A DNA stretch of 58,291 nt, counting the filler, from Streblomastix strix (Eukaryota): the NCBI GenBank assembly GCA_008636045.1. It is 3 parts of 3 records of this genome, joined end to end, with 100 filler letters (N's around TTAATTAATTAA, not from the genome) between each part and the next. Parts side by side here need not be neighbours in the genome. Positions count along the whole stretch, not along the records: positions 1 to 19,365 come from SNRW01000519.1; 2 more parts are not named here. The stretch is one strand, 5' to 3'. Below the pieces are notes generated by a model that saw only the letters and a program-made list of their open reading frames with translations, searched no databases and was not told the DNA's origin. Below are positions 1 to 18,532 of this stretch, piece after piece (position 1 is the stretch's first letter; each line of letters starts with the position of its first letter). Made by a program: the position numbers and the translations under genes.

Positions 1-53
1 AAAATTGCTATAAAAAAGCCAGTCGAGCCGCCAATCTGCCAAATAAATTTTTC
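1..53 (+). repeat. Left terminal inverted repeat (imperfect, possibly truncated by the contig start)
   Basis: AAAATTGCTATAAAAAAGCCAGTCGAGCCGCCAATCTGCCAAATAAATTTTTC aligns to the reverse complement of 18478-18532 (AAAAGTTGTCATAAAAAAGTGTGGCCAACCGGACAAATGGCCAAATAAATTTTTC). Confidence 0.6.
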
Positions 54-213
54 TTGATGAATGGCTTATATAATTGGGATAAAATAATTTAATATATAAT
101 AAATGTAATAATAAATAATAAAATTTATTGACGATAAGGCTTTCAAAGTCGATAAAATAAAACTATAGGATTTTATAAGAAATTTAAATTTTAATTTTAA
201 AAAACAATTTAGT

Positions 214-1272
214 ATGAACAATTTGTAAGAATTATTTGAAAATAAAACTATATCATAATGGTATAAAATTTACTTGGATAATTTCACGAAATACCACGCC
301 GAAAGAATAAAACAAACAACAAAGCCATAAACAAAGCCAAAACAAGTCGTAGAACCCCAGTGAATAACAAATATATTTCGTAGTAAAATTTAAAACAAAA
401 ATGATGTAGTATAAGACATAAAAATAAAGCCAATAAAAAAATATTAAAGACCTTATTTTTCACCAGAGCTTGGGAGCTGGGAAATTGAAATAATTTTTGT
501 AATGCACCAAACGATTAATAAAATTGTATAATAATATTTGTTTTGCATCAATATTAATACCAAATTTTTAGTTGTATTTCCTTTAAAGGATAAAACAGCA
601 AAGGAACTATTAAGATGTATAAAGTAGCTTATAAAAGACTAAAATGTTAGTAATATTCGTTCTGATGGTGAATCTGCTTTAAGTAGCAAACAAATCAAGG
701 AGTTTTTAAAAGAAAATGATATAAAATATTTCTTTAATTCTTCACCTTTCATAAATAAAAATCGAGTTGTTGATTCAATAATAAGAACAATAAGAAACGC
801 ATTTGATAATGACCCATAGCTAATGGCTAATAACAAATAAATATAGCAAGTAGTTGATGAATATAATAACACAAAACATAATGCTTTAAAGCTTTAAAAA
901 TAAACTTTTAGCCCTTCATAAGCTAATTATAATGAAAATTTAGAAGGTATATTTATACATATGAAAATGGAGTAGTTAAAAGATATAAAGGACTAATAAA
1001 ACAAAAATAAACAGCTAGATTTAACAAAATATAATATAATAATGATACATTTGGACTTATCGAAAACACCTCATGGATTTTAAACGAAAAGAAGGTAATT
1101 TAATGAGATAGCAACATTTATAAAATATGAGCATGGTAATGTTATATGTGAGTTGCTAAAACCATATAAAGATATAAAAACAGTTGAAGTTCCAGTATAT
1201 TATACTCATAAAGTTGCTGACAATATTGATGTATTACCTGAAAAATATAATAGAACCTTTTAATTATTTTGA
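214..1272 (+). pseudogene. rve-family (retroviral-like) integrase, one in-frame TGA at 361-363
   Basis: Code-6 translation: RPYFSPELGSWEIEIIF...YLFCININTKFLVVFPLKDKT...NIRSDGES...NKNRVVDSIIRTIR...YNNTKH, the rve core pattern. Confidence 0.85.
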
Positions 1273-1297
1273 TTTATTTTTTTTATTAGTATAATAA

Positions 1298-1615
1298 ATG
1301 GAAGATATAAAAATTGAAAAATAAATATTAAAAGCTGTAAGACCTAAAAAATATTAAACAGAAGATTAAGTAAAAAATATTGCAAGATAATAACGCAAAG
1401 AATATAAAGCTAGAAAAAGCGAGGAGTTAAAAAAGTTTAACCTATAAGCTTCTACTCTACAAATATAAGTAATAAAATTATTAGGTAAAATAGTGTTAGA
1501 TAACGAAGATATAATAAAAATAAACGATATGATACAAAAGAAAATAAAACAAAATGAAATTATAAAAGCTAACGATTTATTGAAAAATGAAGCACCACAA
1601 ACTCCTTTATCATGA
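1298..1615 (+). CDS. Viral hypothetical protein, 105 aa, basic
   Basis: Open ATG-to-TGA frame in code 6 with TAAATG start context. Confidence 0.6.
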
Positions 1616-2667
1616 TTTCTTTTTCTTATTTTTGCCGTATTTATTCTTTAATTATTTTTATGCTTCTAAAGACTTTTATAACTAGCATGTTGGCATATAA
1701 TTTTTATGTTTTGGTGGCCTATTCATTCTGTCTTCTTTCAGCATTAAATCCTTCTTTGTTTGTAAATATAATTGTCCCCCTTCATTCATGTAATATCCAA
1801 CCTTTTTTGTGGCATATGGTGTTTTGCTATAATACTGATTTACTGGGGCAGTTCCCCAATTTAATCCTTTTATAAAATATTCTACACCCTTTTGTGTTTG
1901 TGCGTTATCTTGCTATAAAATTTATCCTTCAACTTATTTTTCTCTCTAATATTGTTGCTACTCATTTATTGGATTAATTTGCTATGATTAGTCCGTAAAA
2001 CTTTATAGTTAGTATTCAAAAGCATCTGGTGTATTATCAAAACCCTACGTTTAATAAATATTATCTTTTTCCTTTACCTTTTCCTTTTCCTTTTCTTAAT
2101 GAGACCCAAACATATATTACATCAAATCATCTTCTTTATTAATGCCTTTTGGAGGTGCTGTTGCACGTAATGATGGTTAAGGAAACGCATGGCTTCCTAT
2201 ATCATTTGTCAGTTCATTTGCTCTAGCATTTATACCTAGGGATTAATCACTCATTGCCGCGTTTCTATAAACACCTTATAATGGACCATGAACACCTCGT
2301 ATATATATTCATCTAAATCTCTATAATATTGTATGAAATCATTTGAATCAATCCCATCAAAATGTCTTTACTTTCTTGTCGCACCTTTCATACCTTCAAA
2401 AGCTGCTTCGACATCTCCATGGGTAATATTAAGGTCATACTATCTTACTTAATTAATATAATCCTATCTTTACTTACAACTACCTGGACCTAGTTTTTTA
2501 ACAGCTTCCGATTGTTTTAATTCATCTAATATAGAGGTTATTTTACTTACATTTCGTGGTTAAACTTATTGACCCTTATGTATATACGGCTTTTTTGATT
2601 CAATAAATTCACTAACACGTGTTTTAGGTATTGCTTTTTTAACTGGTGCAACTCTCTTTGATGACAT
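1612..2667 (-). pseudogene. Viral hypothetical protein (~350 codons), frameshifted
   Basis: Starts MSSKRVAPVKKAIPKTRVSEF after TAAAATG. Coding-like segments continue in shifting frames; the 3' end is approximate. Confidence 0.5.
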
Positions 2668-2837
2668 TTTATTTTGTTTAAAATTATATATTCTTATTAA
2701 TATTATTAATAACAAACAAATGGAACATCAATACATATTTTGTGAAATAATCATTATAATTTCAAGTTTCTTGCTTATTATTTCATAATTATCAACCTTT
2801 TAAAATTATTGATTTGTTTGTTTTATTTTTATTAAAT

Positions 2838-16496: not shown

Positions 16497-16873
16497 AAAA
16501 TTCAAAGAATATTGAACACCAAAAATAATTATTTTTTCATCCATATATTGAATTTCTAACCTCTTCGCTTATTTCTTCACAATCCATTTTTATTTATGCT
16601 ATTACTAATATACAACCAAGCAAATTATTGCATGCTATAACCATTAATGAGATACTAGTTATTATTTCTAAAATCATTTATATATAAATAAAATTAAACT
16701 TTTCACCGGCAAATTTTCGATTCGCAAGCATATTTGATTGCTGCATCCCAAATGGTCTTAAAGATAGCATGCCAATTTATATTTAATTATTCAAGTGAAT
16801 AAATAATAGTTTCTAACATTTTTTTATCAAAAAAAGTCTCATTAAAGGGCTCCATTTATTTATTTTTAAAATG

Positions 16874-17919
16874 TCAAGCTGATTAATTATAAACAGCGTA
16901 TGAATCGCAAACCTATACGCAAAAATCATCTTGCAAATGAAGTTGGTACTATGTATTAATTATAACATTACCGTTTGGATTAATAAAACAATCTATAGGA
17001 ATTGCTCCATTCCAACATATAGGATAACCAATAACTTTTTACGTAAACATAACAGCATTAAGGGGTATATTATGAGTAGTGCCAGAAAATTATGGTTTAA
17101 TGGCATTATTAACTATTGAAAATAAAGTATATCCTGACTCGGTTAATGTATTAGGATCTGAATGAGTTATTTACACAGATATATATACACGTTCTTTTTA
17201 TGATTTTACAACACCCCAAATTAATTATTCATACATACCATAGGCAATAGACTAATATATTGCATATTCGAAAGGTACCGGAGGAAGAGGTGATACAATT
17301 TAATTGTTAAATTTTAATGTTGTACAATCGAAATTTATAATTAAACCCTTATAATCATATGCTTAATCTTCTTATTTTTATATTCTAAATTTTGACGACG
17401 TTGATCCAATTTTCCATATTCCGTCAGTATCTGTGGGGTCGGCATTACTGCCAGTTAGCACAAAACTGTCCCAATTTGCTTTATTTTTCATTATCCGTAT
17501 GCCTTAATTCCGTATGTCAACGTTCGGCTCTATAATTAATTAACCAAAAGCATTTGGATAGTTTTTAGGTAAAAAATCATCCACATCTGTTGTATCTCCA
17601 TTAGCGAGTAAAATTTGATTATTTGTTCCGCCTTGCTTGATTATTTTATCTACATAAATAGGATATAAAAACGTTTTGATTCCATTAATCACCTGATTAG
17701 TACGTAAATTTACGTAATCGATTGAATTTCTGAAAAATTGTCTTATATAATTGAAGTATTTAATAATCTCGTTATCTACCAACTATAAAAGAGTATTTTT
17801 TATCTAGTTTAATTTTGTTATTCTTCCTGTTTTTTTTATAGTCGTTTTTATTCTTCCTACTAGTTTTTCAAATCATCCTCATCGAGTAATGATAAATCTC
17901 TAATTGGTTAATCATTCAT
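16874..17919 (-). pseudogene. Fibre/spike-like protein 2 (~348 codons), frameshift near 17810
   Basis: Shares YVNLRTNQVINGIKTF, KIIKQGGTNNQILLANGD and NQGIRI modules with fibre gene 1, but has a distinct beta-rich C-terminal domain. Confidence 0.6.
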
Positions 17920-17944
17920 TTTTATAATCCAAAAATAAATCATA

Positions 17945-18361
17945 TCATTCGTTTACATAGTAATCAATACAATTAACAAGACATTTGACACCACATTAGC
18001 CACATTTATTATATTTTGTTTAAAATTACATTTATTCTACAGCTTCTTTTAATTCTCGGTATTTTACCCCAAAATCTCTGTTATCACATAAGACCTTCAT
18101 TTGTTCTGTATATTCTTTAATTATATCGTCGATATGCTCATTATTTCTTTTTTCAATCATTATATAAACTGTTTATGGGTATTTATCAGGCTATTTTCCA
18201 TACCGTTTTAACAACTTATAATATGGTTTATTATTTTTGGATAATGTTCGTTGGTAAAAATCATCACCGCATTAATAAATAGGTTCTTCGTATATTTCTT
18301 TTGGAATATTTTAAGGATGTATCAACAATTTGCCTTTAACAATTTCGGATTACGAAAGCAT
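17945..18361 (-). CDS. Viral hypothetical protein, 138 aa, C-terminal Cys cluster
   Basis: Open code-6 frame ending KCGQCGVKCLVNCIDYYVNE*. Confidence 0.55.
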
Positions 18362-18477
18362 TTTGGTTCTAGATAAAAATAATTAAATTAATAATAAAAA
18401 ACAGCTAAAATAATTAAAACCTTATTAGGAACTATAAAAATTATAAGACTTTATTAACAAAAATAATTGAGACTTTT

Positions 18478-18532
18478 GAAAAATTTATTTGGCCATTTGT
18501 CCGGTTGGCCACACTTTTTTATGACAACTTTT
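18478..18532 (-). repeat. Right terminal inverted repeat (imperfect)
   Basis: Reverse complement aligns with 1-53, and viral-type gene density stops here. Confidence 0.6.

Follow-up and report, generated by a model that had tools for sequence, protein, structure and literature searches.

Bellas et al. (2023; PMC10120064) placed all 820 capsid matches from the termite-gut protist Streblomastix strix in a single Metamonada (MMN) cluster, MMPC_40, with one structural representative. A stretch of DNA from the S. strix assembly GCA_008636045.1 raises the question of whether a second capsid family exists beside it. This window, the whole 58,291-nucleotide stretch that was analysed, consists of three pieces of about 19,364 nt each joined by N spacers (contig 1, 1–19364; contig 2, 19466–38829; contig 3, 38930–58291), and the main element under study is contig 1. 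It is quite probably a decayed, likely integrated copy of a multi-copy Maverick/polinton-like virus that reads TAA and TAG (together TAR) as glutamine, with a capsid lineage likely separate from the published S. strix capsids. This would be a second capsid family among the recoded elements of S. strix, probably unreported, and its relatives elsewhere use the standard code. Membership of group 1 Maverick-Polintons is not established, because no protease was found, the capsid is too divergent and the target site is unreadable. Statements about published work refer here to the parts of each source that were covered. A literature search on Streblomastix with polinton or capsid found only Bellas et al. 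(2023); Streblomastix is not mentioned in the covered parts of two preprints (10.64898/2026.10.13.758929 and 10.1101/2024.03.23.586382).

Genetic code and capsid family

The genes of the contig 1 element read TAA and TAG as glutamine, the same as the neighbouring host genes. Under translation table 11, contig 1 has no open reading frame (ORF) of at least 100 aa, all six in the window falling elsewhere; translated with table 6, it is tiled by long ORFs. Nine frame pairs between contigs 1 and 3, aligned with TAR masked, test the code without assuming it. Across from the 184 TAR codons aligned, the second copy has TAR 62 times (6.6-fold) and CAA/CAG 20 times (5.7-fold), and no residue besides TAR/Gln exceeds 1.3-fold. 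TAR accounts for 76% of the Gln codons in 12 viral frames (225/295) and for 64–87% in three host ORFs of contig 2. The host is most likely the oxymonad S. strix, whose published elements use the host TAA/TAG=Gln table (PMC10120064). Both the table 11 result and the excess of CAA/CAG opposite TAR bear out the claim of a first-pass annotation of this DNA that the genes are readable only in this code. Its further claim, that the element is invisible to standard-code annotation, holds for table 11 tools but not for databases, since the main capsid frame is already a protein record in NCBI nr/UniRef (P0001).

The capsid candidate belongs to a large family: 200 proteins match at E ≤0.001. Among the 120 matches listed, 119 are labelled Streblomastix strix (45–90% identical in the best local segments) and one is the window’s own; 12 of those listed carry the UniRef label ‘Major capsid protein’. 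One 90% cluster has 29 members, several of them full-length at 652 aa, and the family includes intact full-length genes (P0002, P0034). A double jelly-roll fold has the support of language-model features and of weak Foldseek ranks but is not proven. Features from the Atlas give similarities of 0.95–0.97, with all ten best named clusters in the capsid clan. The top ten rows of a Foldseek search against PDB are all double jelly-roll capsids aligned over about 610–650 columns; the top seven against BFVD are capsid proteins of virophages, nucleocytoplasmic large DNA viruses and an adomavirus. The Sputnik, Sissi and mavirus capsids come first, yet at E 1.4e-3 to 1e-2.

Contig 3 holds a diverged relative in a perfect 9,547-nt palindrome, whose 268-nt centre lies just upstream of pPolB and which is most likely an amplification or an assembly chimera. 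The two contigs are 57% identical in the capsid (568 codons) and 50% in pPolB (753 codons). Synonymous differences (pS 0.74–0.83) exceed nonsynonymous ones (pN 0.29–0.33), third codon positions are the least conserved, and TAR occurs in both copies at 26 sites. Because pS exceeds pN and these TAR sites are common to both, the family appears to have diversified under purifying selection while already using TAA/TAG as glutamine. Homologues of the capsid, peptide and pPolB genes in contig 3, together with the 200 capsid matches, confirm the earlier suggestion of a family.

Relatives also occur outside S. strix. A capsid profile search gave 211 matches; among the 150 listed, ten long, low-scoring picks are Logan, ENA, JGI and NCBI proteins, three of them on contigs of 20.6–21.8 kb. 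Distant metagenomic relatives in the tree set are 21–30% identical to P0002. In a quick capsid tree of 27 rows, built with no outside root, all 13 code-6 rows lie on one side of a branch with an SH-aLRT value of 100. One relative, L002 (13.5 kb, partial), uses the standard code, with TAA, TAG and TGA all ending genes. It carries a capsid gene (24% identical to the window frame), a peptide gene, an ATPase gene, a homologue of the penton candidate and a fibre-like gene; no pPolB or integrase was seen in this partial sequence.

Gene content, ends and decay of contig 1

All the genes named by the first-pass annotation are present in contig 1: integrase, pPolB, ATPase, capsid candidate, penton candidate, two fibre-like genes and a peptide (Table 1). 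The integrase is broken and scores 26 bits, below the curated cut-off of 32.6. The pPolB match (PF03175) stands at E 2.8e-5 in contig 1, and the contig 3 copy is above the curated cut-off. An insert within pPolB matches the endonuclease VII family phrog_1035 (E 3.4e-8); this endonuclease-VII-like module (7256–7960) is found in both the contig 1 and the contig 3 copies. A long N-terminal extension carries a conserved Cys and, 147 residues later, a His, both ahead of the exonuclease motifs, and these motifs recur in contig 3 and in relatives. By its motifs, the Cys/His pair fits the vOTU protease known from polinton pPolBs and is regarded here as putative; with domains assigned by motif only, the arrangement resembles the TP-vOTU-EXO-PALM architecture (Krupovic et al. 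2024, PMC11161782).

Each half of the broken ATPase is 31% identical to an intact P-loop protein of L002, whose own best family match is the terminase phrog_2666 (E 1.3e-5); the family scan gave no A32 profile match for the ATPase. Its Walker A motif reads GSGRT, with R where L002 has K. Pfam (28 ORFs) and PHROGs (26 proteins, 21 from the window) yielded no adenain, and an adenain motif is absent in every frame from contig 1, contig 3 and the partial L002, although a divergent or decayed protease may have escaped these scans. The earlier remark that no adenain is recognisable agrees with all three scans.

The penton candidate has 13 matches, all labelled S. strix, besides a 701-aa homologue in L002. 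In Atlas features, that homologue lies near the DUF5901 and Sputnik V18-19 clusters at 0.91, which is a lead only. The two fibre-like genes have repeats in common (E 1e-7 to 7e-7). The repeat motif of the longer one occurs five times in the L002 fibre, which matches the tail protein family phrog_7911 (E 3.2e-5).

The 68-aa peptide is likely a membrane-active capsid core protein. Its homologues adjoin the capsid gene in all five elements examined (contig 1, contig 3, L001, L002 and L004), and its best 18-mer has a hydrophobic moment of 0.58–0.69, whereas no 18-mer of the capsid protein exceeds 0.53. No significant match was found in Pfam or PDB, protein VI included. The peptide may resemble the N-terminal helix of adenovirus protein VI. 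The class of membrane-active capsid core proteins (Macc), of which adenovirus protein VI is an example, has been defined (PMC11071296). The peptide is like this class in being small, basic and amphipathic, with a Met-Gly start and a place beside the capsid gene, but it lacks a sequence match to protein VI and is only 68 aa long.

Segments 1–53 and 18478–18531 pair in 41 of 55 columns (~75%, the inner 16 all matching), with a score of 37 against a maximum of 32 in 1000 shuffles. Because contig 1 starts inside the left repeat, the length of the terminal inverted repeat (TIR) is unreadable. Further out, a fold-back at 18774–19022 (−57.3 kcal/mol, z −10.1) has arms identical at 96 of 130 positions, paired along their whole length, and ends in an (ACT)2 motif at 19017–19022. 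AGTAGT/ACTACT are the commonest end motifs of vertebrate Mavericks, whose mean TIR is 402 ± 276 bp (PMC8097293). The right end is more likely at 19022 than at 18531, which would give a TIR of about 545 bp, so the ‘very short TIRs’ of the first-pass annotation are not supported. The fold-back could, alternatively, be a separate non-autonomous mini-element instead of a structured terminus. In runs X1–X3, coverage by related pieces extends into the last bin, although depth is no measure of copy number.

The contig 1 copy is decayed: it carries a miniature inverted-repeat transposable element (MITE) and no fewer than nine stops or frameshifts, so ‘near-complete’ describes its gene content but not its state. 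Five in-frame TGA stops lie at 361, 7934, 8633, 13363 and 13837; at least four frameshifts lie near 7290 and 9280 (pPolB), between 10460 and 10637 (ATPase) and near 14775–14838 (capsid). The MITE, 222 nt long, is of Tc1/mariner type, with 28-nt inverted ends, TA at both ends and internal 16-nt repeats. Contigs from runs X1, X3 and X4, all from one sample, join 12559 to 12781 and thus give the empty site, which makes this lesion biological. In run X1, 11,017 related pieces align, most of them at 85–99% identity. In runs from two studies, one of which may be the source, each of the 30 bins is covered by pieces of related copies.

Competing readings and proposed life cycle

Several results weigh against the interpretation of contig 1 as an integrated virus with a capsid lineage of its own. 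The capsid model is poor (pLDDT 54.6) and gives no Foldseek match at E 1e-3, so the double jelly-roll that the first-pass annotation expected for 14509–16496 is seen in the top PDB rows but not at significance; TM-scores are about 0.2, VIA Z is below 4, and a wide search puts non-capsids first. Alignments of the capsid find nothing significant in PDB or Pfam, including the Pfam virophage capsids. The model of the penton candidate itself (pLDDT 29) is unusable, and its single jelly-roll remains a candidate. The adenain search consists of a motif and Pfam/PHROG scans, with L002 partial. Contig 1 lacks its left end, the 6-bp target-site duplication that marks Maverick-Polintons is unreadable and only about 340 nt lie beyond 19022, which leaves integration a likely reading, not a direct observation. 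In addition, the published S. strix representative has short stretches in common with the new family by eye, an Atlas cluster whose commonest taxon is Parabasalia lies at 0.97 to the capsid candidate, and in elements of this kind stops and frameshifts often stem from faulty assembly and disappear on polishing (Bellas et al. 2023, PMC10120064).

The last three points bear on two alternatives. The contig 1 element could be just one of the 820 published MMN/MMPC_40 elements, with a capsid that is not new. The two sets are alike in likely host, TAA/TAG=Gln code, highly divergent capsid and hundreds of copies; the published capsids were gathered by PSI-BLAST of nr, which contains the present proteins, and the Parabasalia cluster and the likeness by eye point the same way. 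Membership of MMPC_40 was set at a capsid identity of at least 25% over at least 30% of the length (PMC10120064). Against this, that study has one cluster and one structural representative for all S. strix capsids, and its sequences look different. Nine S. strix capsid ids, found in 58 of about 790 supplement rows, are about 545–562 aa long, some 90 aa shorter than the ~645–660 aa here; none of the nine is among the 119 named matches listed, and none of six family ids was found as an S. strix row among the supplement rows covered, which stop short of the S. strix section, so that some overlap may exist. The published capsids are mostly ~30–33% identical to parabasalid (Trichomonas, Tritrichomonas) ones, whereas the new family’s nearest detected outside relatives are metagenomic and no parabasalid is among its listed matches. 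The separation is thus one of ids and lengths, not of computed identity, and the short common stretches suggest that the two S. strix capsid families are probably distant kin. That contig 1 belongs to the published set is unlikely, though it keeps real weight. It is also rather doubtful that the lesions are assembly errors from collapsed near-identical copies of an intact, active element, even if some base-level breaks may be such errors. The effect of polishing, the many pieces at 85–99% identity, the intact capsid genes and the perfect palindrome of contig 3 would all fit. The MITE, however, is bounded by inverted ends of its own, and three runs show the site empty, which marks it as an insertion and not a base error; the TIR arms are only ~75% alike; Walker A has R where L002 has K; and 40 variant sites are listed, at most of which almost the whole aligned depth disagrees with the base in the window, as would fit an old, diverged copy.

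A further alternative is that the family now spreads solely as a self-synthesising transposon, its virion genes being passengers and no particles being made. No virions are known for Maverick-Polintons (bioRxiv 10.64898/2026.06.19.733378), no adenain was found and the contig 1 copy is decayed. Yet the capsid gene evolved under purifying selection like pPolB, and a relative only ~25% identical keeps the capsid, peptide, ATPase and penton-candidate genes as a set; spread as a transposon alone is quite unlikely. The preferred reading therefore remains a virus, of which contig 1 is a broken copy. Its description as a distinct virion-forming lineage adapted to the host code survives in part: the family is multi-copy and its capsid is far from canonical Mavericks, but host-code adaptation has already been published (PMC10120064) and lack of the protease is the norm for polinton-like viruses (PLVs), among which Gosseviruses are the only major group with an adenain-type protease as a core gene (bioRxiv 10.64898/2026.06.19.733378).

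The group 1 Maverick-Polintons (Polintoviricetes) of animals (PMC8097293; bioRxiv 10.64898/2026.06.19.733378) resemble the contig 1 element in having pPolB, an rve integrase, a packaging ATPase and major and minor capsid candidates, a size of 18–19 kb and an (ACT)2-3′ end motif, and a TIR of ~545 bp would fall within their 402 ± 276 bp. Unlike them, the contig 1 element has no detected adenain, and its capsid shows no detectable likeness to capsids of solved structure or to those in Pfam; it also has two fibre-like genes and an EndoVII-like pPolB insert, and it is recoded.

From what is known of these gene families, a linear genome between long inverted repeats would be copied by pPolB, whose terminal-protein part may prime synthesis and then be freed by the vOTU-like protease of pPolB itself. 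Insertion of the viral genome into host DNA would fall to the rve integrase. The virion would be icosahedral, its shell made of double jelly-roll capsomers, with pentons at the vertices and with fibres, and the ATPase would fill it with DNA; an adenain-type maturation protease seems not to be needed. At entry, the Met-Gly amphipathic peptide might disrupt membranes in the manner of adenovirus protein VI. With three quarters of Gln codons being TAR, a standard-code cell would end translation of these genes too early, so the recoded branch would be confined to hosts that share the TAA/TAG=Gln code.

A broader proposal is tentative, with somewhat less than an even chance of being right. The family may represent an unclassified, protease-free protist lineage of small double jelly-roll DNA viruses with a ~650-aa capsid, a protein-VI-like Met-Gly peptide, a long penton and phage-like fibres. 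Standard-code viruses of this lineage would persist in metagenomes (several contigs of ~20 kb), while one branch radiated in an oxymonad, converted three quarters of its Gln codons to TAA/TAG and became locked to its host. If true, the lineage would offer a natural experiment on the passage of a DNA virus across a genetic-code barrier. Neither a virus in the host code nor the lack of a protease is surprising alone. With the recoded branch and its standard-code sisters in hand, how and when a DNA virus adopts reassigned stops, and with what effect on host range, become testable. Metamonad Mavericks and PLVs are so far ungrouped, and more genomes from related organisms have been asked for (bioRxiv 10.64898/2026.06.19.733378); the second capsid family and its standard-code relatives could serve as bridging sequences. 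For viruses without adenain, the conserved Met-Gly peptide is small and can be tested as a candidate for the agent of entry.

Feature map and minor observations

Table 1. Features of contig 1 and the relative in contig 3, in window coordinates.
Coordinates	Strand	Feature	Evidence or remark
1–53		Left TIR, inner end, cut by contig start	Pairs with 18478–18531
61–1272	+	rve-type integrase, in-frame TGA at 361–363	PF00665, E 1.2e-5
1298–1615	+	105-aa ORF	No family match
1610–2308	−	ORF of up to 232 aa	No family match
2251–2667	−	138-aa ORF, basic N-terminus; possible core protein	No informative family match
3101–4570	+	Penton (minor capsid) candidate, 489 aa, unbroken	L002 homologue, E 5e-9
4969–9579	+	pPolB, putative vOTU Cys/His pair, EndoVII-like insert; two frameshifts, two TGA	PF03175, phrog_1035
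9978–11119	+	Packaging-type (putatively A32-like) ATPase, one frameshift	Intact L002 protein, E 2e-17 and 5e-16
11222–11674	−	150-aa ORF with counterpart in contig 3	E 7e-6
11716–14277	−	Long fibre-like gene, broken: two TGA, frame changes, MITE	Repeats common with second fibre gene
12561–12782		MITE within fibre gene	28-nt inverted ends, TA at both ends
14278–14484	−	68-aa basic amphipathic peptide, Met-Gly start, head-to-head with capsid gene	Homologues in relatives
14509–16496	+	Major capsid protein candidate, ~660 codons, one frameshift near 14775–14838	Profile and fold evidence
16703–16855	−	50-aa ORF, kept in contig 3	E 2e-13
16874–17872	−	Second fibre-like gene, open frame of 332 codons	Repeats common with first
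17945–18361	−	138-aa ORF, Cys-rich C-terminus	No family match
18478–18531		Right TIR, inner end	Pairs with 1–53
18774–19022		249-nt imperfect fold-back, AGTAGT start, ACTACT end	Likely true right end, or derived mini-element
38930–48476		Partial relative (capsid, peptide, HNH gene, pPolB; other gene order), duplicated as perfect palindrome	Contig 3

Contig 2 resembles host DNA: its kinase-like genes are split by introns, and it has a tandem repeat of 96 nt as well as a coding repeat of low complexity. The relative in contig 3 has an HNH endonuclease gene (40672–41388, minus strand; PF13392, E 1.9e-9) between its peptide and capsid genes that contig 1 lacks. In L002, three tandem and apparently paralogous ORFs of ~200–220 aa (5380–7293), with no Pfam match, lie between the ATPase and penton-candidate genes. 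A motif of ~50 nt, not found in contig 1, occurs four times between contig 3 genes (39976–40025, 40357–40406, 43373–43422 and 48283–48332) and is a possible viral promoter or terminator. Within 1–19364, a TTTT(T)AAA...AAA stretch lies up to 30 nt upstream of most viral ATGs and may be a shared promoter or initiation signal.

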